Below are positions 1,331-30,736 of a DNA stretch of 64,000 nucleotides, piece by piece (position 1 is the first letter of the stretch; the number at the start of each line of letters is the position of its first letter). The notes below the pieces were generated by a model. The model saw only the letters and a list, made by a program, of their open reading frames with translations, did no database searches and was not told where the DNA came from. Location of the stretch: positions 1,495 through 65,494 of the forward strand of contig JBGSPR010000011.1 in the NCBI GenBank assembly GCA_041738495.1, in the 5' to 3' direction. The translations under genes and the position numbers were made by a program. Source of the stretch: Patescibacteria group bacterium (GTDB lineage: Bacteria > Patescibacteriota > Patescibacteriia > PEXW01).

Positions 1331-1332
1331 GG

Positions 1333-6291: not shown

Positions 6292-6332
6292 CCTGCGTCG
6301 ACCACGCTGCACGTGCGTGGTATGCTTCGGGT

Positions 6333-8423: not shown

Positions 8424-9517
8424 CCGAGTACAGACGTCCAGACTCGCTCATGTTCGCGCTCGTCGTCCTGTTGTGCGTCTTCGGCATCATCATTTTTTCT
8501 TCGGCGAGTAGCGTCGTATCGTTCCAGTCGCTGGGCGACCCGAACGCGCTGTTGAAGAAGCAGGCAATTGCCCTGGTCTTGGGGTTGCTCCTCATGGTGG
8601 TTACCATGCGCTTAGATTTGCGCATCCTCGAGCGCTACGCGACCCCAATTTTCGTTCTCTCCATTGGGCTCATGCTGCTCCCTTTCGTGCCGGGCTTGGG
8701 ACCGGAGTACCTTGGCGCAAACCGATGGGTGTCATTCGGCGGGTTTTTCTTCCAGCCGTCGGAACTCGTCAAACTCACGACAGTTGTCTTCTTCGCTCGC
8801 TGGTTGCCAACGCTGCGTTTTGACCGAACGCTGCCGAAGGAAACGTTCCTTCCGTTCCTCGGTATTCTCAGCGTCATCGTGCTCATCCTCGTGTTGCAGC
8901 CAGACCTGGGAACAGCAATCGTCATCCTCGCAGTGAGCATCACCCTGTACTTCGCCGTTGGAGCTCCTGCGAAGCACTTCGGGTGGATCGCGGGCGTCGT
9001 TGCGATCGGCCTCATCCTGCTCATCCAAGTGGCTCCGTACCGAGCTGCACGGCTTACCGTCTTCCTCAACCCAGCGGATGACACGCAGGGTTCTGCGTAC
9101 CACATCAACCAGTCGCTACTCGCAATAGGGTCGGGAGGCCTCTTCGGCCGTGGACTCGGGCACTCCATTCAGAAGTTTAACTACCTCCCAGAAGCTGAGG
9201 GCGATTCCATTTTCGCGATTGCTGCTGAAGAGCTCGGGTTCTTCTTCAGCGTCGGCTTGGTTGCGCTGTACGTTGCCATTCTGTGGCGCGGCGTGCAACT
9301 GGCCAGACTGTCGACGGACATGCCGGTGAAACTCACTATCGCTGGCATCGTCACGTGGTTCGGCGTGCAGGCGTTCATCAACATCGGTGCGCTTACTTCT
9401 GTACTCCCGCTCACTGGAGAGCCGCTCCCGTTCGTGTCGAATGGTGGTTCTTCCCTGGTCATTTCTCTCATTGCAGTTGGCGTACTCCTCAACTACTCGC
9501 GTACAATACGAACATGA
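8420..9517 (+). CDS. ftsW: SEDS-family peptidoglycan glycosyltransferase FtsW/RodA
   Basis: 365 aa, 10 TM, FtsW/RodA motifs; ATGA overlaps with murD upstream and murG downstream. Confidence 0.85.
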   Translation: MTEYRRPDSLMFALVVLLCVFGIIIFSSASSVVSFQSLGDPNALLKKQAIALVLGLLLMVVTMRLDLRILERYATPIFVLSIGLMLLPFVPGLGPEYLGANRWVSFGGFFFQPSELVKLTTVVFFARWLPTLRFDRTLPKETFLPFLGILSVIVLILVLQPDLGTAIVILAVSITLYFAVGAPAKHFGWIAGVVAIGLILLIQVAPYRAARLTVFLNPADDTQGSAYHINQSLLAIGSGGLFGRGLGHSIQKFNYLPEAEGDSIFAIAAEELGFFFSVGLVALYVAILWRGVQLARLSTDMPVKLTIAGIVTWFGVQAFINIGALTSVLPLTGEPLPFVSNGGSSLVISLIAVGVLLNYSRTIRT

Positions 9518-10566: not shown

Positions 10567-11945
10567 ACCTACACTCCGCCACACACGTCCACGTCATTGG
10601 TATCGGTGGTATTGGCGTTTCCGCGCTTGCGAAGTGGTGCTTGGAGCGTGGCGCTACGGTGAGTGGGAGCGATGCCGTTGAGACGCCGCAAACCACGTGG
10701 TTCCGGGCGCACGGCGCTGTCGTGCACATTGGCCAGCACGCCGCTGCGCACGTTCCCAGTGCGTGTGACCTCGTGCTCGCGTCGGTTGCGGTGCGTGAAG
10801 AAAATTCCGAGTGGCAAGCAGCAGTCACTCGACGGATTCCCATCTTGCCGTACCCCGTGGCTCTCGCACAGCTCTTCGAAGGTACGCACGGCATTGCAGT
10901 AGCCGGTACGCATGGGAAGTCCACCACGACCGCACTCTTGGGAACCACCCTCATTGCAGCGGGTTTCGACCCAACGGTCATCGTTGGAACGCGTGTCCGT
11001 GAATTTGGCAACACCAACGAGCGCGTTGGCGCGAGTGATGTGGTGCTGGCGGAAGTCGACGAGTACAACCAAGCGATCTTGCAAGTGCAGCCCACGCACG
11101 CGGTTGTCCTGAACGTGGACCACGAGCACGTAGATGTGTACGAAACATTGGAAAAACTGCAGAGTGCTTTTGGTCGGTTCGTCGCCAGCGTACCGAAGAA
11201 TGGAACGGTCACGCTCTGGGCAGATGACCCGAGCACGCCCCTCCTTCGTGAACGCGTGCAAGGGGAGGTACGCACGTTTGGCTTTGGGGACGCAGACCTC
11301 GTCGCGCGCGACATTATCACCTCTGCCTCGGGTACGGCCTTCTCCGTGCAGGGTTTGTACCGCGGCACCGTGCGCACCAAGCTCTTCGGCGAGCACAACG
11401 TGCGGAACGTTCTTGCCGCACTGTGCGTTGCTCACGCGCTGGGAACGCCCTTCGACGTTGCTGTAGCGGCAATGAGCACCTTCCCAGGAACGTGGCGACG
11501 ATTTGAGCACCGCGGCCTCTGGCGTGGCGCAACGATCATCGATGATTACGCGCACCACCCAACCGAACTCCGCGCTACGCTCGCGGCTGCACGACAGGCA
11601 TTCCCAGGGAAGCGCATCACTTGCGTTTTCCAGCCCCACCTGCACAGCCGAACGCTCGCATTCTTCCCGAACTTCGTCCGCGAGTTGCAAGCTGCGGATC
11701 ACGTGGTGCTCGTGGAAGTCTACGACGTACTTGGTCGAGATGTGGGTCCGCGCACATCGAGCGCAGAACTCGCTCGAGCGGTCGGGAACGATGCAGCGTT
11801 CGTTCCAACGGTGCGCGATGCTGTGCGCTACCTCGAATCGCGCGTCACCTCTACGGATGTGGTACTCACCGTTGGTGCCGGTGACATCACGTCGTTTGCC
11901 TCACTCGCGCAAAATGAAAAGCCCTCCGCAGCGCAGGAGGGCTAG
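10563..11945 (+). CDS. murC: UDP-N-acetylmuramate--L-alanine ligase MurC
   Basis: 460 aa; HVIGIGGIGVSALA N-terminal Rossmann fold and GTHGKSTTT P-loop. Confidence 0.9.
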   Translation: MNLHSATHVHVIGIGGIGVSALAKWCLERGATVSGSDAVETPQTTWFRAHGAVVHIGQHAAAHVPSACDLVLASVAVREENSEWQAAVTRRIPILPYPVALAQLFEGTHGIAVAGTHGKSTTTALLGTTLIAAGFDPTVIVGTRVREFGNTNERVGASDVVLAEVDEYNQAILQVQPTHAVVLNVDHEHVDVYETLEKLQSAFGRFVASVPKNGTVTLWADDPSTPLLRERVQGEVRTFGFGDADLVARDIITSASGTAFSVQGLYRGTVRTKLFGEHNVRNVLAALCVAHALGTPFDVAVAAMSTFPGTWRRFEHRGLWRGATIIDDYAHHPTELRATLAAARQAFPGKRITCVFQPHLHSRTLAFFPNFVRELQAADHVVLVEVYDVLGRDVGPRTSSAELARAVGNDAAFVPTVRDAVRYLESRVTSTDVVLTVGAGDITSFASLAQNEKPSAAQEG

Positions 11946-12940
11946 ATGGGAATGTACGTGAAGAGTGTCTGCTGGTACTGGACACTCGCGTTGTAGGGAA
12001 TGTGCTGGCGAACAATGCGGCACCGAACAGGTGCGGTTACCCGCTCTTCAATGCTCCCCATGAGGAGCCACACACTCCCCAGATGCGTGCCTGGCTCGAC
12101 GACGCTCCCCACGAAGGTTTTTGCGTGTTCTTCAGCTGGGCGGAAGAATCCTGCGTAGTCGCCTTGGTACGTGAGCTCGCGCATATCGTGAGGGGTGCCC
12201 AGCAGCATTGCGCAGGCGAGGGACGCGAGTTCGGTGTACGGTTGTGCGCCGAACTGCAGGATGAAGCCGGACGTGGGAGCGGTGACCACTGTCGCTCGGT
12301 GCAAGCCCGTGCGAGAGCGAATCGAGCCCACCGGGTCGCCTGCTGCGACGAAGTCTCCAACGAAGACGTTTCGGTAACCTCGATTCCAGTACTTTCGGTG
12401 CGGGACGAGGTGACGGGCGTGAGCGAGGCCGGTTGCGTTTTCGACGATTGCGGGTAACCAGGTTCCTCCACCTGGTACGGTAACCGGCGTGATGTCGACG
12501 GGGATGGTGAGCAGCGGTGGTTGCCCCACAATCCAGTTCGCCGTAGCCGGGAACTGCAAACCCTCGGGGTACTGCGGATCATTCTCCGGAAAGTAGTAGG
12601 TGAGTTGGCCGTTTTCCACGAAGACCGTCTGTCGCATCGCGTTCTGCCCCCGCGTCGCCGGAGCTTGGAGGGCGTACCCATGCGGTACCCGTGATTGCGA
12701 GGGAGTTCGCCGAACGGTTACTGCGCTCAGCACAGACCGGACCACGAGTTCGCTCACGTTGCGCTCTTCGGCCAGCGCTACAATGCGCTGCGCTCGTCGG
12801 AAGTGCCGGTAGTGGAAAATACCGAGGATTACCCCAACGAACAGGCAGCCAGCGGTAAATCCGCCAATAGCAAACCAACCGTGCGTTTGCGCGAGTGCTT
12901 CCAGCCAGTGGAGGAAGCGCTCGATGCTTTGGAAATGCAC
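11942..12940 (-). CDS. Membrane-anchored hypothetical protein, possibly phosphatidylserine-decarboxylase-like fold (very tentative)
   Basis: 332-aa ORF with perfect GGAGG SD 7 nt upstream of the ATG at 12940, N-terminal TM helix, no confident family. Lies convergent to murC with overlapping stops (CTAG). Confidence 0.5.
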   Translation of the reverse strand: MHFQSIERFLHWLEALAQTHGWFAIGGFTAGCLFVGVILGIFHYRHFRRAQRIVALAEERNVSELVVRSVLSAVTVRRTPSQSRVPHGYALQAPATRGQNAMRQTVFVENGQLTYYFPENDPQYPEGLQFPATANWIVGQPPLLTIPVDITPVTVPGGGTWLPAIVENATGLAHARHLVPHRKYWNRGYRNVFVGDFVAAGDPVGSIRSRTGLHRATVVTAPTSGFILQFGAQPYTELASLACAMLLGTPHDMRELTYQGDYAGFFRPAEEHAKTFVGSVVEPGTHLGSVWLLMGSIEERVTAPVRCRIVRQHIPYNASVQYQQTLFTYIPI

Positions 12941-12951
12941 TCTTTCCTCCT

Positions 12952-12979
12952 TTGGTGTTCATGTAAATTGCGCTATAGT
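12952..12979 (+). promoter_or_regulatory. Candidate promoter for murB (TTGGTG-16-TATAGT) in the divergent spacer between the hypothetical gene and murB
   Basis: gcgcTATAGTat at 12974-12979 shares the gCTATAgT core with the promoters at 21151 and 39755. Confidence 0.35.
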
Positions 12980-13004
12980 ATATCGGCCAGCGCTCTGGCT
13001 GTCA

Positions 13005-13913
13005 ATGAATGACGCGCGTACACAACTCGAACGCCTTCCCGGAGTGAAGGTACGTGAACCACTCGCTCCGCATACCACCTTTCAAGTTGGGGGTCCGGCG
13101 GCATTCTTCGTATCGACGAATGACGTGCCCCTGCTCCAGCGCGCCGTTCGCGCTGCACGAGCAGCAGGTCTACCCGTCGCCGCGCTGGGCGGCGGCAGCA
13201 ACACGCTCGTTGCTGACACGGGTTTCCCAGGACTCATTGTCCACCTCACCTCAACGCGTTGCGAGGCACGCGATGATGGCCAGGTCGAAGCTGATGCTGG
13301 CACACCGCTCAGTCGCGTCGTGCGCACAGCAATTAGTAAAAACCTCACTGGCTTAGAATTTGCGGTCGGCATCCCCGGGTCGTTCGGTGGAGCACTGGCT
13401 GGCAATGCTGGCACGGGTGGGCACGGCGTGAGCGAGCGCGTCGAGCAGGTGACGTACCTCGACGATAGAGGTGAGTTGCGTACCTGCGATAGGACGAGTC
13501 TCGATGTATCCTACCGCTACACTCGCTTCAAGTACTCGACGACTGACATTATCGTTAGCGCGCGGCTCAAACTGGCGATAGACACTCCAACAGAAATTCA
13601 GATGAGAGTTCGGGAAGCAGTTGACCGACGCTCCTGGCAACCGAAGGGTGCGTGGTGCGCTGGTTGCGTGTTCAAAAATCCAGCGAATGGGCATGCGGGC
13701 AAGCTCATCCAGGATGCTGGGTTGAAAGGAAAGAAAATCGGCGGTGCCATGGTATCGCCTGACCACGCGAATTTCGTGACGAACACGGGCAATGCCACCG
13801 CTGAGGATATCGTCATCCTCATTAGTTACATCAAGCAGCAGGTGCGTGACCAGTTTGGCGTTCAGTTGGAAGAAGAAGTTCGGTACCTTGGCTTCGATTC
13901 TCCTCCCGCGTAA
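13005..13913 (+). CDS. murB: UDP-N-acetylenolpyruvoylglucosamine reductase MurB
   Basis: Start MNDARTQLERLPGVKV at ATG 13005; FAD-binding GGGSN motif; MurB C-terminal domain. Confidence 0.88.
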   Translation: MNDARTQLERLPGVKVREPLAPHTTFQVGGPAAFFVSTNDVPLLQRAVRAARAAGLPVAALGGGSNTLVADTGFPGLIVHLTSTRCEARDDGQVEADAGTPLSRVVRTAISKNLTGLEFAVGIPGSFGGALAGNAGTGGHGVSERVEQVTYLDDRGELRTCDRTSLDVSYRYTRFKYSTTDIIVSARLKLAIDTPTEIQMRVREAVDRRSWQPKGAWCAGCVFKNPANGHAGKLIQDAGLKGKKIGGAMVSPDHANFVTNTGNATAEDIVILISYIKQQVRDQFGVQLEEEVRYLGFDSPPA

Positions 13914-14285: not shown

Positions 14286-16994
14286 ATGGCTTTCCTCACA
14301 AAACTCTTCGGCGACCCAAACCAGCGAGCGGTCCACAGCATGGACGGCATCGTGGCACGCATAAACGCGCTCGAGCCAAGCGTGGCGAAGCTCGCCGACG
14401 CTGACTTCCCGCAACGCACGAAAGACCTCTACGATCGGCACACGAAGGGCGAATCCCTCGATGACCTCCTCCCCGAGGCTTTCGCACTCGTGCGCGAGGC
14501 AGCGCGTCGTACCCTCGGGCAACGCCATTTCGACGTCCAGCTCATGGGCGGTATCATCCTGCACCAAGGGAAGATTGCAGAAATGCGAACTGGAGAAGGG
14601 AAGACTCTGGTCTCCACACTCCCAGCGTACCTGAATGCTATTGCGGGCAAGGGCGTGCACGTGGTGACGGTGAATGACTACCTCGCAAAGCGCGACGCGG
14701 CGTGGATGGGGAAGGTGCACCACTTCCTCGGTCTCTCGGTTGGGAGTATCCAGCACGAATCCGCCTTCCTCTACGACCCGTCGTACGAGAGTGACGAGCA
14801 GAATCCAAACCTCCGCCCAGTGAGTCGAACCGAAGCGTACCGTGCTGACATTACGTACGGAACGAATAACGAGTTCGGTTTCGACTACCTGCGCGACAAC
14901 ATGGTTCCCGACCCACAGTACATGGTGCAGCGGAACCTCACCTTCGCGATCGTAGACGAAGTTGACTCCATTCTCATTGATGAAGCGCGTACACCGCTCA
15001 TCATTTCCGGTCCGAGCACAACTCCGAGTGAGCAGTACTACAAGTACGCCGAGCTCGTCCAGCGCTTGGAAGAGGGCCCGGACTACAACATTGATGAGAA
15101 ACTCCGCGCGACCACTCTCACCGAGCAGGGGATTAGTAAGATGGAGAAGTGGCTGAACGTTGAGAACATCTACGCAGCGGGTGGTGTGGAAATGGTCCAC
15201 CACATCGAGCAAGCTCTGCGCGCGCACTCGCTCTTCAAGCGTGACCGTGACTACGTGGTGCGCGAAGGAGAAGTGGTCATCGTCGATGAGTTCACCGGTC
15301 GACTCATGTTCGGCAGGCGGTACTCCGAGGGCTTGCACCAAGCTATTGAGGCGAAAGAGCGGGTCGAGATTAAGCAAGAGTCGCAAACCCTCGCCACCAT
15401 TACGTTCCAGAATTACTTCCGCATGTACGCGAAGCTCTCTGGTATGACCGGTACAGCTGCTACGGAGGCAGAGGAGTTCAGCAAGATCTACAACCTGGAA
15501 GTCGTTACAGTGCCAACGAACAAGCCTATGGTTCGGCGTGACATTGCCGACAGCGTGTACAAAACCGAAGCAGGGAAGTACGAGGCTATTGCACGGGATG
15601 TGAAGGTGCGTCACGAGCAGGGACAGCCCGTACTCATTGGCACCATTTCCATTGCGAAGAACGAAATGCTCGGTCGTTTGCTGGATCGCGAGGGTATTCC
15701 GCACCAAATGCTCAACGCGACGAACCACGAGAAGGAAGCGTCTACCATTGCGCAAGCCGGACGTCGCGGTGCGGTGACTGTGGCCACGAACATGGCCGGT
15801 CGTGGCGTGGACATCATTCTCGGCGGAAACCCGCCAGACCCAGATGAGGCATCAGCAGTAAAACAACTCGGTGGTTTGCACGTCATTGGCACCGAGCGAC
15901 ATGAGTCGCGTCGTATTGACAACCAGCTCCGCGGTCGCGCTGGGCGCCAGGGGGATCCTGGATCATCCCAGTTCTTCCTGTCCCTGGAAGATGACCTCAT
16001 GCGCATCTTCGGCGGAGATCGAGTGAAGTCGCTCATGGAGCGCTTGGGCGTGCCTGATGACATGCCCATTGAGAACCGCATGATTTCTCGCTCCATTGAG
16101 GGCGCGCAGAAAAAAGTAGAAGGACACAACTTCGACATTCGCAAGCACTTAGTTGAGTACGATGATGTCATCAACAAGCACCGCGAAGTCATCTACTCTC
16201 GTCGCCGTGACGTGGTGAAGTGTTTAGAAACACCAGAAGGTCGACGTCCTGCAATTCAGCAGGCAATCCACGAAGAGCTGGAGCGCATTGTCTCCATGCA
16301 CACCTCAGCAGATCGCGAGGACACTTGGAACCTCGACGAAATTTACGAGTCTATTGATGCAGTGTTCCCCATTGCCTTGAAAGAGCGGTTGACCATGGAG
16401 GCGTACCGCACTCGCGTCGGTGAGGTGGGTGGAACAGCTGGGGCGAGGAATGCAATCATCACCCACCTCGACGAACTGCTCACCCAGGCGTACGACACAC
16501 TGGAGAAGACGATGAGTGAGACGCCAATGGGGCGGGATACCGCAACCCGTGGCCAGAACCTCATGCGCCTCGTGGAACGTGCCGTTGAACTACGCATCAT
16601 TGATACGCTCTGGATAGAGCACCTCGCACTCATGGATCACCTTCGCCAGGGGATTGGGCTGCGAGGGTATGGTCAGCGCGACCCGCTCGTCGAGTACAAG
16701 AAGGAAGCGTACGTTCTCTTCAGCCAGCTCCTTGCGGCAATCCGCTCGCAGGTTGTGCACGCAATTTTCAAAGCGAACGTGAGCGTGCCAGCGCAGCCAC
16801 GCGAACAGCGACAGGTTACCTACACCGCACCCGCGAAGGATGCGACATCGAGCAGCACTGCAGCAACGACTTCTCCAACAGGCGAAAAAGTTGGTAGGAA
16901 TGACCTCTGCCCGTGCGGGAGTGGTAAGAAGTACAAGAAGTGCGGTCTGGTGAATAGCCCAGAGCACCAATCCTTCGTACAAAAGAAAGCCTAG
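14286..16994 (+). CDS. secA: Preprotein translocase ATPase SecA
   Basis: 902 aa; DEAD-like motor motifs; C-terminal zinc finger [12 protein letters not shown]. Confidence 0.95.
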
Positions 16995-18478: not shown

Positions 18479-20182
18479 ATGACCCTCCGCCGTCGGGTTT
18501 GGATTACCTTCGGACTCACCGTGCTGCTCACCCTCGGAGCGGCGTACGTTGCCCTACCATCCCACCCATCGCTACCAGGTTTCCTGGGTAAGCAGTTTGA
18601 CCTACGACTAGGGCTGGACTTGCAGGGTGGTTCAGCGCTCGTGTACGAGGCGGACACGAGTCAAATTCCTACGGAAGATCACGCACAAGCCATTGAGAGC
18701 GCGCGCGACGTCATTGAGCGTCGGGTGAATGCATTTGGCGTGTCCGAACCCGTTGTGCAAACGAGCCGCGTTGGTGACCGGTGGCGGGTTATTGTGGAGC
18801 TTGCGGGTGTGAAAGATATCTCGCAGGCCATTACCCTCATAGGTGATACGCCCATTCTCGAGTTCCACGAACCTGGAGAACCCACACCACTCACGGAAGA
18901 AGAGAAGGCCGATGTGAACGCGCAGAACGAGGAAATCCGCAAGCAGGCAGAAGATGTCCTGAACCAGGTGAAGGCGAAGCCAGAATCATTCGTTGATCTC
19001 GCAAACGAGTACACTGACGATCCGAGTAACCTCGATGCTACAACGAACACCGCGCGCGGTGGCGATTTAGGTTTTGCCAAGAAGGGTACGTTCGTCGAGG
19101 AGTTTGAGAACACTCTCTTCAACACGTTGAAAGATGGGGAAGTCTCTCAGACCCTTACGAAGACTACTTTTGGCTACCACATCATTAAGCGTGAAGAATC
19201 GCGCACCCAGAATGTGAATGGCACAGACACGCAGGAGGTTCGCGGTCGCCACATTCTGTTCCAAACCGTGAGCGCAGAGCCCACTGCTGGCGCGTACACG
19301 CCCACTGGGCTATCTGGGAAGCAGCTCAAGCGTGCTGCAGTCACGTTTAACCAGTCAACTGGCGAGCCCGAAGTATCGCTCACCTTCAATGACGAAGGGT
19401 CTACGCTCTTTGCGGAAATTACCAAGCGGAACATTGGGAAGAACGTTGCAATTTTTCTAGACGGCGAGGTGATTAGTAACCCGGTTGTAAACCAGGAAAT
19501 CACCGGTGGCCAAGCAGTGATTAGTGGGGGATTCAGCCTCGCTGACGCAAAAGAACTTACGAAGCGACTCAACGCTGGCGCACTACCGGTGCCAATTTCC
19601 CTCGTGAACCAGCAGACCGTGGGCGCATCCCTTGGGTCGGCATCGATAGAACGGAGCTTGTTCGCCGGGCTGCTGGGCATTCTCGTGGTGGCAGTATTCA
19701 TGGTTGTGTTCTACCGCTTGCCAGGCCTCCTCGCGGCAATTGCGTTGGGCGCGTACACCCTCATTGTCTTGGCGATCTTCAAGCTCTGGCCGGTAACGCT
19801 CACGCTCGCTGGAATCGCTGGCTTCATACTCTCCATTGGCATTGCCTTAGATGCCAACATCCTCATCTTCGAACGAACCAAGGAGGAACTGCGGAATGGC
19901 CGTCCGCTCGATGCAGCGATTGAGGAGGGCTTCAAACGCGCGTGGCTTTCGATTCGCGATTCCAACGTCGCGAGCATCATCACCTCCCTCATCCTCATTT
20001 GGTTTGGATCGAGCCTCATCAAAGGATTTGCCATTACCCTCCTCATTGGTATCGTCGTGAGCCTCTTCTCCGCGATAACAGTTACGCGCACGCTCCTTCG
20101 GCTCGTCACAGGAGCAGGATTCGCGCGCCATCCGAAGTTATTCGGAAACGTTGCCGAACGTTCACCTCACATAGAACGCTAG
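18479..20182 (+). CDS. secD: Protein translocase subunit SecD with a parvulin-type PPIase-like domain occupying the P1-head position
   Basis: N-terminal TM, conserved VIVELAGV and ILEFH SecD P1-base motifs, then residues about 140-240 reading GGDLGFAKKGTFVEEFENTLFNTLKDGEVSQT...FGYHIIK (parvulin signature), then a canonical SecD C-terminal 6-TM bundle. Confidence 0.85.
   Translation: MTLRRRVWITFGLTVLLTLGAAYVALPSHPSLPGFLGKQFDLRLGLDLQGGSALVYEADTSQIPTEDHAQAIESARDVIERRVNAFGVSEPVVQTSRVGDRWRVIVELAGVKDISQAITLIGDTPILEFHEPGEPTPLTEEEKADVNAQNEEIRKQAEDVLNQVKAKPESFVDLANEYTDDPSNLDATTNTARGGDLGFAKKGTFVEEFENTLFNTLKDGEVSQTLTKTTFGYHIIKREESRTQNVNGTDTQEVRGRHILFQTVSAEPTAGAYTPTGLSGKQLKRAAVTFNQSTGEPEVSLTFNDEGSTLFAEITKRNIGKNVAIFLDGEVISNPVVNQEITGGQAVISGGFSLADAKELTKRLNAGALPVPISLVNQQTVGASLGSASIERSLFAGLLGILVVAVFMVVFYRLPGLLAAIALGAYTLIVLAIFKLWPVTLTLAGIAGFILSIGIALDANILIFERTKEELRNGRPLDAAIEEGFKRAWLSIRDSNVASIITSLILIWFGSSLIKGFAITLLIGIVVSLFSAITVTRTLLRLVTGAGFARHPKLFGNVAERSPHIER
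18896..19198 (+). other. Parvulin (PpiC/SurA/PrsA-like rotamase) domain segment embedded within SecD
   Basis: GGDLG...FGYHII motif pair diagnostic of parvulins; a downstream RHILF motif at about residues 257-261 suggests permutation or a second partial repeat. Confidence 0.65.
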
Positions 20183-20184
20183 CT

Positions 20185-21078
20185 ATGTACCGCATCATTC
20201 AGAAGCGCAACTACTTGTTCGCCGCCTCCATACTCCTGCTGGTGCCAAGCGTATTTGGACTCATAGTCTGGGGACTGCGTTTGGGTATAGATTTCACTGG
20301 TGGGACGCTCATTCGCTACACGTTTAGCGGACAGCCTCCGGCGACAGCGGTTGTTGAAGAGGCAGCACGAGAAGCAGATCTGCCGAACGTGTTCGTACAG
20401 ACGGCCGGAGACACTGGTTTGACTGTTCGTACCGAACCACTCTCTAACGAACAGCGAGAGTCGTTGACGAGCTCACTCCTCACACGCGAGGCGAGCACGA
20501 TTGAAGAGAGCTTCGAATCCATAGGTCCTACCATAGGCAGCGAGCTCAAGCGCAAGGCCATTACCGCCACGGCAATTGTGCTACTCGTCATCATCATGTA
20601 CATCACCTGGGCGTTCCGCAGAGTATCGGCGGGCCCTGTACCTTCCTGGGCGTACGGCGTGAGCGCTATCATCGCGCTCGCACACGACCTCCTCATGGTA
20701 GTGGGCCTCTTTGCAATATTTGGACACTTCTTTGGCATCGAGGTTGATGCGCTCTTCGTCACTGCCCTCCTCACGGTACTCGGTTTTTCCGTGCACGATA
20801 CAATTGTCGTCTACGATCGCATTCGCGAACGACTCACCGCTGCCGCTGGGCGAACATTTGAGGAGGTTGTGAACGAGAGTTTGAATCAGACAATGGTGCG
20901 GTCAATCAATACCTCGCTCACCGCTCTGCTCATCCTCACCGCGCTGTTCATTTTTGGCGGTTCCACGATCAAGCCATTCATCCTCGCTCTGCTCATTGGC
21001 ATTGCTTCCGGAACCTACTCGTCCATCTTCATTGCTGCGCCGCTTCTCGTGATTTGGCAGCAGCGCCGCAAGGGCTGA
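20185..21078 (+). CDS. secF: Protein translocase subunit SecF
   Basis: Start MYRIIQKRNYLF at ATG 20185, 3 nt after the secD stop; SecF TM bundle motifs. Confidence 0.88.
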   Translation: MYRIIQKRNYLFAASILLLVPSVFGLIVWGLRLGIDFTGGTLIRYTFSGQPPATAVVEEAAREADLPNVFVQTAGDTGLTVRTEPLSNEQRESLTSSLLTREASTIEESFESIGPTIGSELKRKAITATAIVLLVIIMYITWAFRRVSAGPVPSWAYGVSAIIALAHDLLMVVGLFAIFGHFFGIEVDALFVTALLTVLGFSVHDTIVVYDRIRERLTAAAGRTFEEVVNESLNQTMVRSINTSLTALLILTALFIFGGSTIKPFILALLIGIASGTYSSIFIAAPLLVIWQQRRKG

Positions 21079-21127
21079 GGCGCGCTTTCGTGGTTGGAAA
21101 GCGCTCTTTTATGTTTATCCATGAAAC

Positions 21128-21156
21128 TTGACAGAAAATCAATAAAGTGCTATATT
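21128..21156 (+). promoter_or_regulatory. Near-consensus sigma70 promoter TTGACA-17-(TGc)TATATT
   Basis: TTGACA 21128-33, 17-nt spacer, extended TG at 21148-49, TATATT 21151-56. The first ATG of the downstream gene is at 21165, implying a leaderless or very short leader. Confidence 0.6.
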
Positions 21157-21164
21157 TTACCTAT

Positions 21165-22298
21165 ATGGATGATACTGACCAAAGTCCATCGAACTCCATA
21201 CTCGATCAAGTGCTCTCCAAGAAACAGCTAGACGTCATTGAGCACTTCAGCCCACTCGAGGTTATGGCACAACTCCTGAAACTCCTCACGAGCCGTGAAG
21301 AGGAGGTTTTACGTCGTCGGTACGGACTCCAGGGTAAGGCGCCAGAAACTCTGGAGCACATAGGTGCTCAGTATAACGTTACGCGCGAACGGATTCGGCA
21401 AATCGAATCTGGTGCTGTGCAGAAGTTGCGCAAGCACGGTGATGTCATGCGGATCGTCCGACCAATCGCCGACGCCGTACGCACGCTCCTGGATCAGCAC
21501 GGTGGTGTACTCCGAGAGGACGCACTCTTGCAAAATCTCATAGGCACAGATGACGATGTGCAGACGTCGCAAGCAGCAACGCTCTTCATCATCCGCAACC
21601 TCTTGCACCAGCACGTTCGACCCTACACGTCGGACGAAGCGCACCCAACGTGGCAACTCGTGACAGCGCCGACGCACCTTGTCCGCGAGGTTATGCGACT
21701 CGCACAAGATGCGCTCGCAGCAAAGGAGAAGCCCATTGCTGCTGCAGAACTCCTCACGCTACTACGCGAAACACCTTTCGTACAGGAGCACACGTACCAG
21801 CTGAGTGATGCTGCGTTGCAGTCGTACGTTGATGTGTGCAAGAAGATTGCACGAAATCCTTACGATGAGTACGGGCTCGTGCAGTGGGGGAGTATTGTAC
21901 CAAAGCGCATGAATGATAAAATTTACCTGGTCCTCAAGAAAGCAGGGAAGCCGTTACACTTCAATGAAATTACTAAGCTCATTAACGACACGCACTTTGA
22001 CCATCGTACCGCGTACCCACCTACAGTGCACAACGAGCTCATCTTGAATGATCGGTACGTTCTCGTCGGCCGAGGGATCTACGCCCTCAAAGAGTGGGGC
22101 TACCGTGCAGGGGTTGTTGCAGATATCCTCGTTGACGCACTCACCTCCGCGGGCCAGCCAATGACTCGAGACGCGCTCGTTGAAGCTGTGCTCAAGCAAC
22201 GCCTTGTGAAGCGGAACACCATTCACCTCGCGCTCACTAATCGCAAACGCTTTCAAAAAAACTCTGACGGCACGTACAGCCTCGCGCCGGCAGCCTAA
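21165..22298 (+). CDS. Sigma-70 region-4 (HTH) domain protein with a roughly 280-aa uncharacterised C-terminal domain
   Basis: N-terminal SREEEVLRRRYGLQGKAPETLEHIGAQYNVTRERIRQIESGAVQKLRK is a textbook sigma region 4.2 HTH. No regions 2/3. The ORF tracker start (GTG 21147) overlaps the predicted -10, so ATG 21165 is preferred. Confidence 0.65.
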   Translation: MDDTDQSPSNSILDQVLSKKQLDVIEHFSPLEVMAQLLKLLTSREEEVLRRRYGLQGKAPETLEHIGAQYNVTRERIRQIESGAVQKLRKHGDVMRIVRPIADAVRTLLDQHGGVLREDALLQNLIGTDDDVQTSQAATLFIIRNLLHQHVRPYTSDEAHPTWQLVTAPTHLVREVMRLAQDALAAKEKPIAAAELLTLLRETPFVQEHTYQLSDAALQSYVDVCKKIARNPYDEYGLVQWGSIVPKRMNDKIYLVLKKAGKPLHFNEITKLINDTHFDHRTAYPPTVHNELILNDRYVLVGRGIYALKEWGYRAGVVADILVDALTSAGQPMTRDALVEAVLKQRLVKRNTIHLALTNRKRFQKNSDGTYSLAPAA

Positions 22299-22306
22299 CG
22301 CACACC

Positions 22307-23842
22307 ATGGCCGTTATTGATCTTTCTGGTCTCGTTACGGACTTTCAGAGTTCGTCGGGTAACCCAGCTTCGATGTTCTGGTTCATCTTCCGCAATGGAG
22401 GGTGGCTTGGCGTTGTCATTACCTTACTCGCGGGCTTCAAGTTCTCGTGGCTAGAGTACATCCAGCGTCGGTACATTGCGAAGAACTACGATGGGAAGTA
22501 CGTGGTGCTAGCTATTGACTCACCCAAGAACACCGAGCAAACCCCGAAAGCTGCTGAGCAAATGTTCGCGCACTTTGCGGGCATATCGAAAGGTCCAATT
22601 TTTTCTGAAAAGTGGGGCTTGCCGTTTACCGAATTCTGGAGTTACGGGTTTGTCCCGCCGTCCATGTCTGTTGAAATCGCGAGTCTCGGAGGGTACGTGC
22701 AATTCTTCGTGCGATGTCTCATCGCCCAGCGAGACATCATTGAGGCTGCAGTGTACGCGCAGTACCCTGATGCTGAAATTACCGAAGTTGAAGACTACGT
22801 TGATCTCATGCCGAAACCTCGTGAACTCCCTCACGCCGAATGGGATTGCTGGTCTGCACAGATTTCTTTCCTGCGCCATTCTGCGTACCCCATTCGAACC
22901 TACCCCATGTTCGAGCACGGACTCTCTCAGAAGCTCATCGATCCTATTGCACCACTCATGGAGGTGATGAGTCGCATTAGTCCTGACGAGCAGATGTGGG
23001 TGCAGTGGGTGCTCCAGCAGGACTACCCGCCTGACGAGTGGCGAGAGAAGGGTGAGGGCATTGTCATGAAGCTCATTGGGAAAAAGGGGAAGGCTCCAGC
23101 GAACCCTTGGGATATACCCCGCAAGCTCGGGAAAGATGTATGGGAAGCGGGTACCGCTTCGCTCTTGGGGATTAACCCAGAAAATGAAAGGCAGAAGAAG
23201 GACGATCCTCCTTCCCTCATGCTCCACCTCTCTCCCGGCGAGCGTGACACGGTGACGCAGATGCAGATGAAGCTCTCCAAGGTCGCCTTCAAGTGCAAGA
23301 TGCGCTACATCTACTGGGGGAAAATAACTCCCGGACCGGATGGAAAGAAACCTTTCAATAAGGCTCGTGGTGTGAATGGGTTCCTAGGTTGGCTACGGCA
23401 ATTTGCGATTTCCGACTCGAACTTGTTCAGCGTCTACAAGCAGACGAAAACCGGCGACATCATTTGGTTCAAGAACATGCGCATGCTCGATCGTAAGCGC
23501 CGTAACTTGTACAACTTCCGTAACCGTTCTGCGTGGCGTGGGCGTAAGCCAATTTTCCTCACTGTTGAAGAAATGGCAACGCTCTTTCACTTCCCAATTA
23601 TCGACGTGAAGGCAGCGCAGGTAATGAAGACGGAAACCAAGCGCGCCGGCGCTCCAACGAGTCTCCCGGTTGAAAACCCACTACCCATCCAGAGAGTACG
23701 GGGTGTGAACCTGCAACCCCCACCAGTTGCCGAGCCGCGCGAACCAGCGCTACCCCTCGCGCCCGCCGCCCCTCCCGGTGGCCAAGCTTCGCCTGCCGCG
23801 AAAGAACCGGAAGTGCCCGTCAATCTCCCATTCGTCGAGTAG
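22307..23842 (+). CDS. Membrane-anchored hypothetical protein (single N-terminal TM, large extracytoplasmic or cytoplasmic domain, Pro-rich C-terminus)
   Basis: 511 aa; hydrophobic segment FWFIFRNGGWLGVVITLLAGF; no recognisable family; stop 1 nt before the downstream ATPase start. Confidence 0.5.
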   Translation: MAVIDLSGLVTDFQSSSGNPASMFWFIFRNGGWLGVVITLLAGFKFSWLEYIQRRYIAKNYDGKYVVLAIDSPKNTEQTPKAAEQMFAHFAGISKGPIFSEKWGLPFTEFWSYGFVPPSMSVEIASLGGYVQFFVRCLIAQRDIIEAAVYAQYPDAEITEVEDYVDLMPKPRELPHAEWDCWSAQISFLRHSAYPIRTYPMFEHGLSQKLIDPIAPLMEVMSRISPDEQMWVQWVLQQDYPPDEWREKGEGIVMKLIGKKGKAPANPWDIPRKLGKDVWEAGTASLLGINPENERQKKDDPPSLMLHLSPGERDTVTQMQMKLSKVAFKCKMRYIYWGKITPGPDGKKPFNKARGVNGFLGWLRQFAISDSNLFSVYKQTKTGDIIWFKNMRMLDRKRRNLYNFRNRSAWRGRKPIFLTVEEMATLFHFPIIDVKAAQVMKTETKRAGAPTSLPVENPLPIQRVRGVNLQPPPVAEPREPALPLAPAAPPGGQASPAAKEPEVPVNLPFVE

Positions 23843-23843
23843 C

Positions 23844-25490
23844 ATGCACGACCCCACGAGTATCAACGTCTTCGCCGAAACAAACTACCGCGGACAGCAC
23901 CGGCGTTTTGGCATTAAGGTTGACGACCGACGCCGTCACATGTACTTGGTTGGGAAAACTGGTATGGGCAAGTCGACGGTTATGGAGCGCATGATCGTCA
24001 ATGACATGGTTGCTGGCCACGGTTTGGCGTTGGTTGACCCGCACGGCGACTTGGTGGAAAAAATGCTGCAGTACGTACCAGACCATCGCGTGAACGACGT
24101 CGTGTACTTCAACCCGTCGGACATCGAACACCCGATTGGGTTCAACGTGCTCGAGGCAGTTGATGCAGTGCAGCGACACCTCGTGGCGTCTGGGCTCATG
24201 GGCGTCTTCACGAAGATTTGGGAAGGGGTGTGGAGCGCGCGCATGGAGTACATTCTGAATAACACCATCCTCGCACTGCTCGAGTACCCAGGATCAACAA
24301 TGCTCGGCATCGCGCGCATGCTCGTCGATGGTCGGTACCGCACTCGCGTACTCACCAAAGTGACCGACCCAATTGTGAAGGGGTTTTGGGTGGATGAATT
24401 TGCAAATTACAACGATAAGTTTAGGAATGAGGCTGTGGCGCCTATCCAGAACAAGGTTGGTCAGTTCCTCTCCAGCGCAATCATCCGGAATATCGTTGGT
24501 CAGCCGAAGAGCACCATCGACCTGCGCGACATCATGGACTCGAAGAAAATTCTCCTCCTCAACTTAGCGAAAGGCCGTATTGGTGAGGACAACTCGCGTT
24601 TGCTCGGTGCCATGATGATTACCCGGTTGCAGCTCGCAGCCATGAGTCGTGTGGATATCCCAGAGCCAGAGCGCAGCGACTTTTTCCTCTACGTCGATGA
24701 GTTCCAGAACTTCGCGACGGTGAGCTTCGCGAACATTCTCTCCGAAGCCCGTAAGTACCGACTCAACCTCATCATCGCGCACCAGTACATCGAGCAGCTC
24801 GATGAGAAAGTAGCCCCGGCGGTGTTCGGTAACGTGGGAACCATCATGGCCTTTCGCGTTGGTGGAGCCGATGCAGAGTTTTTGGAAAAAGAGTTCTTCC
24901 CAACGTTCCTGCAAACTGATTTGGTGAATTTGCCGAAGTACGAAGTCTACCTCAAGCTCATGATCGATGGCGTTGCCTCGGAACCGTTTAGCGCCACGAC
25001 CCTCCCACCGACGGAGCTCATCCAGACCAATAATTGGGAGAAAGTAGTTGCCGTATCGCGAGAACGGTACGCACAACGACGTGCAGAAGTGGAGGAAAAA
25101 ATTCTTCGCTGGAGTGGCGTGGAAGATGTGTACCGTTCTGCGGCGCAGGAAGAGAATCTCGCAGCGCAGCAGGAGGAATCCATTTACCGTCCTGAGGGGA
25201 AGCGGCGTCGACCCCCGAAGGATTTATTCCAACGCGACAGCGTAGTGGTGGAGCCCGTCGTGAAGGGTGAGGAGCAGCCCTCGCTTCGTCTCGCTGACCT
25301 CATCCAGCAGCAACCCAGCGCGCCCACTCCTCCACGTCCCGTTACCTCACCACAGTCTCCGGTAGAGCAAAATTCACAGCAAGCGCAGCCAGCGCCCGAG
25401 CGTCCTCAGCAACAAGGGTATCGACCGCAGCGGCCAGATCGGCGACGGCCGCAACGGATGACGCCGTTCGGGAATACTGTGCGTTTCTAG
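23844..25490 (+). CDS. VirD4/TraD/TraG-like type IV coupling protein (T4CP) family P-loop ATPase with Pro/Gln-rich C-terminal tail
   Basis: Start MHDPTSINVF at ATG 23844; Walker A LVGKTGMGKST; Walker B LYVDEFQNF; conserved RKYRLNLIIAHQ motif typical of T4CP/TrwB-like ATPases. Confidence 0.75.
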   Translation: MHDPTSINVFAETNYRGQHRRFGIKVDDRRRHMYLVGKTGMGKSTVMERMIVNDMVAGHGLALVDPHGDLVEKMLQYVPDHRVNDVVYFNPSDIEHPIGFNVLEAVDAVQRHLVASGLMGVFTKIWEGVWSARMEYILNNTILALLEYPGSTMLGIARMLVDGRYRTRVLTKVTDPIVKGFWVDEFANYNDKFRNEAVAPIQNKVGQFLSSAIIRNIVGQPKSTIDLRDIMDSKKILLLNLAKGRIGEDNSRLLGAMMITRLQLAAMSRVDIPEPERSDFFLYVDEFQNFATVSFANILSEARKYRLNLIIAHQYIEQLDEKVAPAVFGNVGTIMAFRVGGADAEFLEKEFFPTFLQTDLVNLPKYEVYLKLMIDGVASEPFSATTLPPTELIQTNNWEKVVAVSRERYAQRRAEVEEKILRWSGVEDVYRSAAQEENLAAQQEESIYRPEGKRRRPPKDLFQRDSVVVEPVVKGEEQPSLRLADLIQQQPSAPTPPRPVTSPQSPVEQNSQQAQPAPERPQQQGYRPQRPDRRRPQRMTPFGNTVRF

Positions 25491-25529: not shown

Positions 25530-26288
25530 ATGCGCATTGTTTCGCTTTCCCCAAGTTCGACGGAAATTGCCTTTGCCCTCGGAGCAGGTGAAGATGTTAT
25601 TGCAGTTACGCACCTGTGCGACTATCCGCTCGCAGCACAGCGACGTGAACGCGTGGGATCCTGGATTCATACTGACGCAGAGCAACTTGCTCATTTACGT
25701 CCAGACATCATTCTCACCACGAACTACGTCCCTGAAGAACTTCGCTCGCACGACGCGCTCTCCCAGCGAGTGCTCACCCTCGAACCATCGAGTCTCGCGA
25801 GCGTTCTCGAGAGCATTCTCGAGGTGGGGTGGCACCTTGGTCGGTACACAGCTGCAGAAGAGCTCGTTGGTGAGATGCAGAAATCTCTGGAGGTGCTCCG
25901 TTCGTCGCAGCCTGCCCACCAACTGCGAGTCTACTGCGAGGAACGCCCGGATCCACCCACACGCGCAGGGTACTGGGTACCGGAACTCGTAGAACTTGCT
26001 GGTGGGATTCCGGTTGGTGGTGTGCATGCAAACCCGAGTAGTCCCGTGCAGGTCGATGCACTGCGAGCAGAGGATCCAGATCTCATGGTTTTCCACTGGT
26101 GCAATCCTGGCGAGTCGCACGACCCGCAGCAGGTAGCTCAGCGGCCTGGCTGGGAGGATTTCCGCGCAGTACGTTCGCAGGCGTTCGCTTTCATCCCGCA
26201 CGACATTCTCAACCGGCCGGGTCCCCGGCTGGTCGATGGGGCACGAGCACTGCAAGGTATCCTCCACGCACACCAGCGTAGCCGCTAG
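25530..26288 (+). CDS. BtuF/TroA-like (cobalamin/siderophore-type) periplasmic-binding-fold protein without signal peptide
   Basis: MRIVSLSPSSTEIAFALGAGEDVIAVTHLCDYP...PDIILTT pattern of class III SBPs; no N-terminal signal; no ABC permease or ATPase partners nearby. Confidence 0.5.
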   Translation: MRIVSLSPSSTEIAFALGAGEDVIAVTHLCDYPLAAQRRERVGSWIHTDAEQLAHLRPDIILTTNYVPEELRSHDALSQRVLTLEPSSLASVLESILEVGWHLGRYTAAEELVGEMQKSLEVLRSSQPAHQLRVYCEERPDPPTRAGYWVPELVELAGGIPVGGVHANPSSPVQVDALRAEDPDLMVFHWCNPGESHDPQQVAQRPGWEDFRAVRSQAFAFIPHDILNRPGPRLVDGARALQGILHAHQRSR

Positions 26289-29656: not shown

Positions 29657-30736
29657 ATGGCGAGGATTGCGGTTGCCATGTCAGGAGGGGTTGATTCTTC
29701 CGTGACGGCGTACCTCCTGCAACGTGCTGGCCACACGGTACGCGGTGTTTTCATGAAGAACTACGAACCACCACCTCAGAGCAACCAGCCATGCCCGTGG
29801 GAGGCGGATCAAGAAGACGTTCGTCGAGTCTGCGAGCGCTTGGGGGTAACTTGGGAAACTTGGAATTTCGAGAGGGACTACGCTGAGCGAGTGCTGGACT
29901 ACTTCTTCCGCGAGTACAGTGCGGGGCGCACGCCGAATCCCGACGTCATGTGCAATCGTGAGGTCAAGTTTGGCGTCTTCCTCCAACGCGCTCTCAGCGA
30001 AGGCTTCGATGCCATTGCCACTGGTCACTACGCACGAATACGTGAGGTGGGTGGTGCATTCCAGCTCCTCGCCGGCGTAGACCGTGGGAAAGACCAATCG
30101 TACTTCCTGCACGCGCTCAACCAATCTATGCTCAGCAGGACGTACTTTCCCATTGGCAATCACACGAAGACCGAAGTACGTGGTATCGCACGGTCAGCGA
30201 AACTCCCGACAGCAGAAAAACCAGATAGCCAGGGCATATGCTTCGTTGGCAAGGTGAACGTTACGGATTTCCTCAAACAGCACCTCCACGCACTGCCTGG
30301 TCCGGTGGTTACAGCGAGTGGCGCGCGCGTCGGCGAGCACATCGGCTTACCGTACTACACCATTGGGCAGCGACACGGCCTTGGTGTTGGCGGTGGGGTG
30401 CCGTACTACGTTGCTCGGAAAAATCTTCAGAAGAATACCCTCATCGTAGCAGAAGGGGATCGTGACCCCATTCTCTACGCACGGGCACTCGAAGCAACTG
30501 CCCCAACGTGGGTAAGTGGTCAGGTGCCTGGAGAAGAATTCTCCTGCAATGCGCGGATACGCTACCGTCAACCACTCGTGTCGTGTACGGTACGCTCAAG
30601 TGGCGAGACGCTGCACGTTACATTCGCACAACTCCAGCGCGCAATTACACCTGGACAAGCAATCGTTTTCTACGACGAAGACGTGTGCCTGGGTGGAGCC
30701 ACGATTGACCACGTGCTTGAGGAGCGGTCTGCCTAG
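29657..30736 (+). CDS. mnmA: tRNA-specific 2-thiouridylase MnmA
   Basis: MARIAVAMSGGVDSSV PP-loop; catalytic Cys residues; full-length 359 aa. Confidence 0.9.
   Translation: MARIAVAMSGGVDSSVTAYLLQRAGHTVRGVFMKNYEPPPQSNQPCPWEADQEDVRRVCERLGVTWETWNFERDYAERVLDYFFREYSAGRTPNPDVMCNREVKFGVFLQRALSEGFDAIATGHYARIREVGGAFQLLAGVDRGKDQSYFLHALNQSMLSRTYFPIGNHTKTEVRGIARSAKLPTAEKPDSQGICFVGKVNVTDFLKQHLHALPGPVVTASGARVGEHIGLPYYTIGQRHGLGVGGGVPYYVARKNLQKNTLIVAEGDRDPILYARALEATAPTWVSGQVPGEEFSCNARIRYRQPLVSCTVRSSGETLHVTFAQLQRAITPGQAIVFYDEDVCLGGATIDHVLEERSA

Follow-up and report, generated by a model that had tools for sequence, protein, structure and literature searches.

A probable two-polypeptide coupling protein in a conserved gene module of Patescibacteria chromosomes

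The stretch of DNA analysed here, which we call the window (64,000 nt; contig JBGSPR010000011.1 of assembly GCA_041738495.1, positions 1,495 to 65,494), is a segment of a Patescibacteria (candidate phyla radiation, CPR) chromosome. Between secF and a Peripla_BP_2 (BtuF-like) gene, flanks that a preliminary description of this DNA had already named, it carries three plus-strand genes, g1, g2 and g3, which follow one another with gaps of 8 nt (g1-g2) and 1 nt (g2-g3). Judging by its sequence, g3 encodes a soluble ATPase from the family of type IV coupling proteins (T4CPs); g2 encodes a predicted membrane-anchored protein, and g1 a predicted DNA-binding protein. The preliminary description had seen in them an orphan module of three independent parts. 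We find instead that g2 and g3 are very probably two parts of one machine, with g1 beside it, and that the module is phylum-wide and vertically inherited in a secDF ... mnmA context; a T4CP detached from its usual surroundings had, moreover, already been described for the phylum (PMC12102498). All close homologues of g1, g2 and g3 come from metagenome-assembled genomes of Patescibacteria, including Kerfeld-, Komeili-, Falkow-, Doudna-, Uhr-, Magasanik-, Buchanan- and Nealsonbacteria. The three genes, and the parts of g2 and g3, are as follows.

21165-22298, plus strand: g1, 377 aa from its ATG; soluble predicted DNA-binding protein
22307-23842, plus strand: g2, 511 aa; DUF8128 (PF26449) family; probable anchor and scaffold half of a split coupling protein
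22373-22453, plus strand: g2, N-terminal hydrophobic helix (aa 23-49), predicted single membrane anchor
22499-23596, plus strand: g2, predicted globular alpha/beta domain with a fold like that of the VirB4 N-terminal domain
23582-23839, plus strand: g2, junction motif HFP..VKAP...PP..LP (aa 426-454) and disordered Pro/Ala-rich tail
23844-25490, plus strand: g3, 548 aa; soluble ATPase of VirD4/TrwB type (T4CP family)
23919-25118, plus strand: g3, nucleotide-binding core; takes in the stretch that aligns with the all-alpha domain (AAD) of TrwB
23952-23978, plus strand: g3, Walker A motif GKTGMGKST (aa 37-45)
24687-24713, plus strand: g3, Walker B motif LYVDEFQNF (aa 282-290)
24750-24785, plus strand: g3, motif RKYRLNLIIAHQ, of which KYRLNLIIAHQ takes up 24753-24785 (aa 304-314)
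25131-25487, plus strand: g3, low-complexity Pro/Gln/Arg-rich C-terminal tail

A coupling-protein ATPase and its separate partner

The family of g3 is established by several profile searches. The protein passes the Pfam cutoffs of TrwB_AAD_bind (PF10412; 41.8 bits against a cutoff of 20.5, covering aa 26-339), T4SS-DNA_transf (PF02534; 26.6 against 20.1), TraG-D_C (PF12696; 26.6 against 22) and DUF87. A profile of 19 g3 orthologues, searched against PDB sequences, recovered only TrwB (E 4e-7) and DotL (E 3e-4), and hhalign aligned g3 to residues 118-394 of R388 TrwB with 95% probability (E 2.5e-8, 267 columns); the Pfam and hhalign alignments span the AAD region of TrwB, with low per-column confidence there. 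Against the VirB4 protein of R388, TrwK, hhalign found only the P-loop (E 0.023). The catalytic residues of Walker A and Walker B and the RK..L..AHQ motif are invariant in the 19 orthologues. The preliminary description had called the ATPase T4CP-related, and these searches bear it out; its statements that g3 begins 1 nt past g2 (the ATG lies 1 nt after the g2 stop codon), is 548 aa long, contains the three motifs listed above and ends in a Pro/Gln-rich tail are likewise correct. Scores in NCBIfam lie far under the equivalog and subfamily cutoffs (CD1115, SXT_TraD, TraD_Ftype and others; the best is 39.9 bits against 250, for CD1115), and g3 is therefore outside every curated conjugative T4CP subfamily. 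No transmembrane or hydrophobic segment was found in g3 (maximum Kyte-Doolittle value 1.17 over 19 aa).

The C-terminal tail of g3 (aa 430-548) consists of 16% Pro, 15% Gln and 13% Arg. Of the 80 orthologues, 51 bear in this tail a zinc finger, CxxC-x17-[RK]PxYCxxC (zf_Tbcl_2, PF23477), which is gone from the window g3, where the Arg/Gln/Pro-rich tail stands in its place; in three loci (L004, L007 and L019) the finger is a separate ORF (open reading frame) of 118-131 aa just downstream of g3.

For g2, searches of the window protein against local Pfam, NCBIfam, PADLOC, PHROGs and PDB sequences returned no match, in keeping with the preliminary description, which saw no detectable family; the informative results came solely from the comparison of folds and from profiles of the g2 family. 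Its homologues of about 40% identity (E 1e-111), however, bear the precomputed domain PF26449, DUF8128; the assignment of g2 to DUF8128 is made through these homologues, there being no precomputed PF26449 record for its own subclade. In all, g2 homologues number 3,341 cluster representatives (E <= 1e-3). The N-terminal anchor that the preliminary description had proposed for this 511-aa protein is supported as a prediction, by one moderately hydrophobic N-terminal stretch (aa 23-49). In the AlphaFold2 (AF2) model (mean predicted local distance difference test score, pLDDT, 76.6; predicted template modelling score, pTM, 0.71), that stretch lies within a helix of residues 20-60, which is followed by an alpha/beta domain of 365 aa with long antiparallel strands and by a disordered Pro-rich tail. 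The flanks of the helix are acidic on the N-terminal and basic on the C-terminal side, from which an N-out/C-in topology is predicted.

The best structural match of g2 is the N-terminal domain of VirB4, a result in which Foldseek agrees, and in the model the globular domain has the fold of that domain. Sequence comparison gave a different picture: hhalign found no signal between the g2 profile and either TrwK or TrsD of plasmid pGO1, so that a direct relationship to TrsD is unproven, and neither g2 nor g3 matches the VirB4-family Pfam model CagE_TrbE_VirB. Unlike the N-terminal domain of VirB4 (TrwK) or TrsD, with which it shares no detectable sequence, g2 has a partner ATPase of T4CP type; unlike TrsD of pGO1 and of the Patescibacteria loci for type IV secretion systems (T4SS), g2 and g3 are encoded outside any T4SS locus. 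A much weaker likeness was seen to EccE of the mycobacterial ESX type VII secretion system, which has two transmembrane helices; no other component of that system is present here.

That g2 and g3 belong together is supported by natural fusions. In another CPR genome (Patescibacteria UBA2196, DCVE01000014; locus L045, positions 144-2711, plus strand) a g2-like half (E 6e-44) is fused with a g3-like half (E 1e-144) in a single ORF of 855 aa. This fused paralogue lies 7 kb upstream of a canonical secD-secF-g1-g2-g3 array, and the presence of both in one genome fits the approximately two T4CP-like genes per genome that have been reported for the phylum. Past the fusion lie an HTH_20-like gene and then an ORF whose N-terminus looks by eye like that of an S4-domain pseudouridine synthase. 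Both halves are also found in one protein family of no known function, phrog_5156 (824 positions), in which g2 orthologues match positions 53-360, g3 positions 408-806 and the L045 fusion positions 66-808; the window g2 itself has no match to it at E 0.01.

Outside the CPR, tblastn found the fused form in SPO1-like Bacillus phages and in phage G (gp156). The C-terminal half of SPO1 gp27.4 (906 aa; locus L083, positions 5536-8256) matches the g3 profile with 98.6% probability (E 5e-16). Its neighbours are the Replic_Relax protein gp27.3 (L083, positions 8249-9073; annotated as initiating replication by nicking) and an actin-like partition protein, and gp27.9 occupies L083 positions 3563-4582. 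We note that gp27.4 and gp27.3, although encoded by a lytic phage, look like a pair that processes DNA in the style of conjugation. Among plasmids, the best non-CPR relatives of g3 are proteins of 800-900 aa; with tblastn E values of about 1e-60 to 1e-34, g3 is closer to these long fused proteins than it is to TrwB. The N-terminal half of the 870-aa protein of Peribacillus NZ_CP068052 matches the g2 profile with 97.3% probability (E 1.7e-11), the 812-aa T4CP of Embleya NZ_CP108778 is colinear with that profile over 346 columns (E 2e-3), and the C-terminal halves of both match g3. On these Bacillus-group and actinobacterial plasmids the fused genes adjoin genes for Replic_Relax proteins and T4SS genes of Gram-positive type, for PrgI/VirB3, VirB4-like, TcpE and cell-wall hydrolase proteins; Replic_Relax is the MOB_C class of relaxases (PMC5357655). 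No match to PF13814 was found among the scanned neighbours of the window module.

The point at which the window proteins are split is the linker past the HFP..VKAP..PP..LP motif, which in the fused homologues runs directly into the ATPase domain. The long single-chain T4CPs resembling phrog_5156 thus have the same two modules, the same order and the same junction motif as g2-g3; they differ in being one chain, in residing on mobile elements without a g1-like partner, and in adjoining MOB_C/Replic_Relax genes and, on plasmids, T4SS genes. We therefore regard it as very probable that g2 and g3 are the split form, conserved as such, of a single-chain 'long' coupling protein, a kind of protein for which we found no experimental characterization in the literature.

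Compared with the familiar T4CPs (VirD4, TrwB, TraD and TraG), g3 has the same nucleotide-binding core with invariant Walker A and B and RK..L...Q motifs and, like many of them, a variable C-terminal extension. Unlike them it has no N-terminal transmembrane domain, the anchor being on the separate g2 protein, which adds a VirB4-like domain of about 365 aa. It is also not linked to relaxase or T4SS genes in the scanned parts of the window (the larger ORFs from position 113 to about 51.7 kb, the scope of all neighbour searches reported here), and the genes are chromosomal, vertically inherited and conserved at a housekeeping level.

Conservation across Patescibacteria

The module was compared across 80 loci from species-level genomes, each with up to 10 kb of flank per side. 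Of the 74 evaluable loci, 60 have g2 directly upstream of g3, the median gap being 9 nt, and g1 lies upstream of g2 in 42 of 57 loci, with a median gap of 106 nt; the linkage of g1 to g2 is real but looser than that of g2 to g3. The three genes are thus conserved as a unit in relatives, as the preliminary description had supposed. A search begun from two g1 homologues again yielded the order secD-secF-g1-DUF8128-T4CP. The genes secD and secF lie immediately upstream in about 36 of the 80 loci, and mnmA downstream in 24 of 80.

Across these 80 genomes, median identity to the window proteins is 65% for g3, a value somewhat inflated by the choice of loci by g3 similarity, 59% for SecA, 52% for SecD, 47% for SecF, 44% for MnmA, 36% for g1 and 34% for g2 (window genes 23844-25490 for g3, against 14286-16994, 18479-21078 and 29657-30736 for the Sec proteins and MnmA). 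Conservation of g3 is thus at housekeeping level and above that of SecA in the same genomes, while g2 and g1 evolve much faster than g3. The module is phylum-wide and vertically inherited under strong selection, and is not a mobile element.

Several side observations concern the variable surroundings of g3. Lineages with g3 but no adjacent g2 or g1 are represented by L005, L013, L020, L021, L026, L028, L039 and L049. Judging by eye from the N-termini, in one g2-less group g3 has nrdR-nrdD-nrdG-like ORFs before it and, after it, an ORF resembling a DEDDh-type exonuclease and a large membrane protein; in a second group a membrane protein of 700 aa and a HIT-like ORF come before g3. Past g3 in L090 (positions 11380-13743) there are a weak TraF-like thioredoxin-fold gene and two DsbA-like genes, and in L088 an OLD-family nuclease/AAA_15 gene lies between the module and mnmA.

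That genomes of Patescibacteria have about two VirD4-like genes each, and that these are seldom close to virB4, was already known from the survey of Quinonero-Coronel et al. 2025 (PMC12102498), who counted 5,713 such genes in 2,918 of 3,035 genomes; T4CP-like genes are present in 96% of the genomes and VirB4 in 80% (2,417 genomes). MOB_C is the commonest class among the rare relaxases of the phylum, which has its own monophyletic VirB4 and TrsD, and the authors raised exaptation of the VirD4-like genes as a possibility (PMC12102498). We found no description in the literature of the DUF8128 partner, the split/fused relation, the VirB4-like fold, the sigma region 4 companion or the secDF synteny, nor anything on PF26449/DUF8128, on HARE-HTH domains in Patescibacteria or on a secDF link.

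The first gene, its promoter and the neighbouring genes

The remaining features of the locus are the parts of g1 and the two elements that precede it.

21082-21114, plus strand: terminator-like hairpin and T-run 3' of the secF stop; 8-bp stem with 5 G-C pairs
21128-21156, plus strand: near-consensus sigma-70-type promoter, TTGACA, 17 nt, TG-n-TATATT
21252-21452, plus strand: g1, sigma-70 region 4 (4.1 and 4.2)
21444-22283, plus strand: g1, four winged-helix domains (aa 94-165, 170-238, 249-308 and 318-373)
21909-22088, plus strand: g1, HARE-HTH domain, the third winged helix (Pfam 28.2 bits against a cutoff of 25.9)

The preliminary description had correctly placed the first gene, with a length of 378 aa, which becomes 377 from the ATG. 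A GTG start at 21147 (383 aa) was rejected: it lies inside the promoter, and the homologues are 370-380 aa long and begin at the ATG. The only recognizable part had been said to be a sigma region 4.2 helix-turn-helix. Region 4 is indeed present (Sigma70_r4, Pfam E 9e-14; region 4 of RpoD/SigA when the g1 profile is searched against PDB sequences, E 2e-17), its recognition helix VTRERIRQIE (nt 21378-21407) is invariant and identical to that of primary sigma factors, and Pfam and NCBIfam profile searches matched region 4 as the only sigma region, with no region 2 or 3. What had been missed are the four winged helices, one of them a HARE-HTH domain, which make up the remainder of the AF2 model (pLDDT 89.9) past region 4. 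No full-length structural analogue of g1 was found.

In its N-terminal domain g1 resembles a primary sigma factor, with a complete region 4.1/4.2 and the -35 recognition helix kept, but it has no regions 1.2, 2 and 3; without regions 2 and 3 it cannot direct initiation as a sigma factor. The HARE-HTH domain is a likeness to the delta subunit of RNA polymerase (RNAP), from which g1 differs in having four tandem winged helices and no acidic tail of the delta type, none being visible in the translation or the AF2 model; the delta model TIGR04567 scores 25.8 on g1, below its cutoff of 42. Two further comparisons were negative. The idea that g1 is a degenerate relaxase was rejected, since g1 proved unrelated to SPO1 gp27.3 (Replic_Relax), and no relation was found to a helix-turn-helix protein of Sulfitobacter. 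Beside the fused homologues outside the CPR there is no g1-like protein.

Upstream of g1, the hairpin proper (21082-21104, followed by its T-run) comes directly after the secF stop at 21078 and, as read from the sequence, sets the secDF transcript apart from the putative transcript of the module. The promoter lies directly past this hairpin, inside the 86-nt secF-g1 spacer. Its TTGACA (21128-21133), 17-nt spacer and TGcTATATT (-10 at 21151-21156) agree with the preliminary description and match the consensus at 11 of 12 positions, plus the extended TG; it is the sole 11/12 site found by scanning 18-27 kb, and promoter-like sites overall are not enriched there (4 found, 3.9 expected from shuffles). 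The same pattern, TTGACA-17-TGnTAnnnT, precedes g1 in 35 of 40 related loci. In the window 8 nt separate the -10 hexamer from the g1 ATG, so that the mRNA leader would be very short or absent here, and no Shine-Dalgarno sequence is visible (21151-21167). Leaderless spacing was rejected as a conserved trait: the distance from -10 to ATG varies from 6 to about 100 nt among relatives (6 nt in L018 and L077, 24-100 nt in most). A scan found no terminator within g1-g2-g3.

The upstream flank consists of secA, an L,D-transpeptidase gene, secD and secF, and the downstream flank of the Peripla_BP_2 gene, GT2, DUF2079, mnmA, fmt and then priA. The larger ORFs scanned are housekeeping genes, and outside these flanks they include pilC, pilB, murD, murG, murC, murB, ftsW, tRNA synthetase genes, alr, and the genes for PBP2 and MreB; the tie that had been suggested between the module and the type IV pilus genes, which stand at the other end of the window, finds no support in conserved linkage. 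The Peripla_BP_2 gene (25530-26288, plus strand) begins 39 nt past g3, after a gap without a terminator-like site, and may be co-transcribed with the module, beside which it is not conserved in relatives. In its translation the binding domain runs from the outset (profile position 1 is residue 3), and no signal peptide was seen. SecD (18479-20182, plus strand) has a PpiC-type Rotamase domain inserted between the first P1 segment and the P1 head, an architecture shared by the related loci L088 and L090. An 885-aa ORF at 5766-8423 (plus strand) joins a Cu-oxidase_4 (YfiH/PgeF-like) domain (aa 224-432) to a complete MurD-like ligase (aa 446-860), which makes it a gene fusion or else an over-extended ORF.

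Possible functions of the module

On balance we favour the reading that the module is an operon fixed in the chromosome throughout Patescibacteria and built around a two-polypeptide T4CP, a motor that feeds a macromolecular substrate. Its computational support comes from homology, fold, the natural fusions, the tight coupling of g2 and g3, synteny, the absence of mobile-element genes and the conservation of g3. In the mechanism that we propose, g2 would consist of a single membrane helix, a cytoplasmic scaffold with the VirB4-type fold and a proline-rich linker, and would tether and organize a g3 hexamer at the membrane. ATP hydrolysis by g3 would recruit or drive a macromolecule toward a translocon. 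The family of g3 and its relaxase-linked relatives make DNA or a DNA-protein complex the most likely substrate.

The best candidate for the translocon is the Patescibacteria T4SS, which is encoded elsewhere, in a locus of its own without a coupling protein; in Southlakia the essential T4SS locus has no recognizable coupling or relaxase proteins (Wang et al. 2023, PMC10633639). The VirB4-like fold might let g2-g3 dock where VirB4 subunits dock. That the split T4CP feeds this T4SS is a possibility to which we give somewhat less than even weight. As to g1, it may bind DNA through its sigma-type region 4, a reader of the -35 TTGACA, and its four winged helices, and may serve either as a regulator of the operon or as a DNA-selecting adaptor in place of the missing relaxase. 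We propose only tentatively, and doubting it rather more than the link to the T4SS, that g1 is a functional partner of g2-g3 and not merely a regulator or a neighbour.

A number of observations weigh against the favoured reading. No translocon gene lies in or beside the operon. Of the 5,713 VirD4-like genes of the phylum only 148 are near virB4 (PMC12102498), and the excess of genomes with T4CP-like genes over those with VirB4 (2,918 against 2,417) implies either that some of these proteins work without a T4SS or that assemblies are incomplete. Conservation of g3 above SecA, which is unlike that of any conjugative T4CP, points to a core cellular role, and the figure itself is raised somewhat by the way in which loci were picked. 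A t4cp homologue of Southlakia, possibly the orthologue of g3, is reported to be non-essential and the T4SS genes essential (PMC12102498, citing Wang 2023). There are 14 lineages out of 74 in which g2 does not adjoin g3, and in 15 of 57 loci the module lacks g1, which where present lies at a median of 106 nt from g2. The anchor helix of g2, its sole hydrophobic stretch, is of moderate hydrophobicity (maximum Kyte-Doolittle value 1.48), and the likeness of g2 to VirB4 is structural only, resting on an AF2 model of pLDDT 76.6.

One alternative concerns g1 alone: it could be a general RNAP-associated or promoter-binding factor that stands beside g2-g3 by inherited gene order only. This we find quite plausible, if a little short of an even chance. 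Its absence from about a quarter of the lineages and its distance from g2 (median 106 nt, against 9 nt between g2 and g3) fit a mere neighbour and leave unproven the suggestion of the preliminary description that g1 is the module's own regulator. The same can be said of its domains, which are typical of transcription proteins (sigma region 4, E 2e-17, and HARE-HTH as in RNAP delta), of the near-consensus promoter that it has to itself in 35 of 40 loci, and of the fused homologues outside the CPR, which do without it. However, in the window only 8 nt and no terminator separate g1 from g2; the order g1-g2-g3 recurs in 42 of 57 loci, which belong to widely differing CPR classes, and came up once more when the search started from g1; and in the non-CPR relatives a DNA-processing protein holds the spot beside the ATPase.

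The main alternative to the favoured reading, which we think unlikely but which deserves serious attention, is that the module is an exapted housekeeping motor independent of any T4SS, acting in membrane DNA handling (uptake, export or segregation) or in protein export beside SecDF, with g1 as a DNA-targeting or regulatory factor. It would account for a conservation of g3 above that of SecA, SecD, SecF and MnmA from the same genomes, for T4CP-like genes that are near-universal (96%, against 80% for VirB4) and rarely linked to virB4, and for the deep synteny with secDF and mnmA. The zinc finger in most g3 tails and the Arg-rich tail in the window are plausible nucleic-acid-binding features, the predicted DNA-binding g1 is co-transcribed to judge by the operon layout, exaptation is explicitly left open in PMC12102498, and the Southlakia t4cp homologue is reported to be non-essential. 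Yet no alternative channel or partner is encoded nearby, and every non-CPR relative with an informative context is found in a conjugation or relaxase setting. The hairpin and the module's own promoter part it from secDF, so that this linkage may be no more than inherited gene order. A role in segregation is probably not vacant either, as FtsK is mentioned in transcriptome papers on the saccharibacterium TM7x; on that mention we set aside the idea that the module replaces FtsK.

We consider it very unlikely that g2 and g3 are a split energizer of VirB4 type, with g2 as N-terminal domain and g3 as ATPase. There is a precedent in pGO1, where a separate protein resembling the VirB4 N-terminal domain, TrsD, is encoded just upstream of the VirB4 ATPase TrsE (PMC12102498); the best structural match of g2 is that very domain, and g3 can be aligned with TrsE over its C-terminal 155 columns (82%, E 1e-5). 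But g3 matches T4CP profiles and TrwB across its whole core and TrwK/VirB4 at the P-loop only, and the g2 profile shows no similarity to TrsD. Patescibacteria already own a monophyletic VirB4 and TrsD (PMC12102498), and the published counts suggest that there are genomes with both a canonical VirB4 and g2-g3; likewise, the Embleya and Peribacillus plasmids hold the fused homologue alongside a separate VirB4-like gene.

That the module was left behind by an integrated conjugative element or a prophage, or that it serves in anti-phage defence in the manner of MADS, is scarcely credible: PADLOC does match g3 to mad8 (E 1.3e-15) and HerA models and g1 to MzaA, relatives of g3 do occur on plasmids and in phages, and the G+C content of the module (52-56%) is slightly below that of its flanks (55-59%), but the PADLOC matches are confined to the shared ATPase and sigma-4 domains, g2 has none, no full MADS or other catalogued defence gene set was found, the scanned ORFs include no integrase, relaxase, VirB4 or other MADS gene, no att-like repeats surround the module, its conservation is at housekeeping level, and the recurrence of the secDF...mnmA position across many CPR classes largely refutes a remnant and contradicts the defence role that had been suggested. 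In this the preliminary description was right that the flanks hold no hallmarks of conjugative elements or T4SS, and none of the findings it had named as fatal to its account (mobile-element flanks, an ATPase unrelated to T4CPs, a module not conserved as a unit) was made in the checks that we ran.

Returning to the two-polypeptide T4CP, its boldest version would be a relaxase-free, sequence-guided DNA motor in core CPR biology, which we think improbable. Here g1, by means of its region 4 and its array of winged helices, would read TTGACA-like sites of the -35 kind, or another feature of the DNA, and hand double- or single-stranded DNA to the membrane-anchored g2-g3 hexamer, which would pump DNA or nucleoprotein either outward from the epibiont or inward. 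If true, a conjugation motor would have been domesticated for routine exchange with the host, which would explain a conservation of the ATPase like that of SecA.

Much of bacterial diversity falls to the Patescibacteria, which live attached to other cells. In the sole species tested their T4SS is essential, and the abundant VirD4-like genes of the phylum are unexplained (PMC12102498, PMC10633639). With a split ATPase half, a partner with a VirB4-like fold, conservation above SecA and a usual companion made of sigma region 4 and winged helices, the 'orphan T4CP' becomes a defined, testable three-component system. The results also provide a first structural and functional hypothesis for DUF8128, and likewise for the uncharacterized family found in SPO1-like phages and Gram-positive plasmids, and they suggest that such coupling proteins may dock on a secretion machine through mimicry of the VirB4 N-terminal domain.

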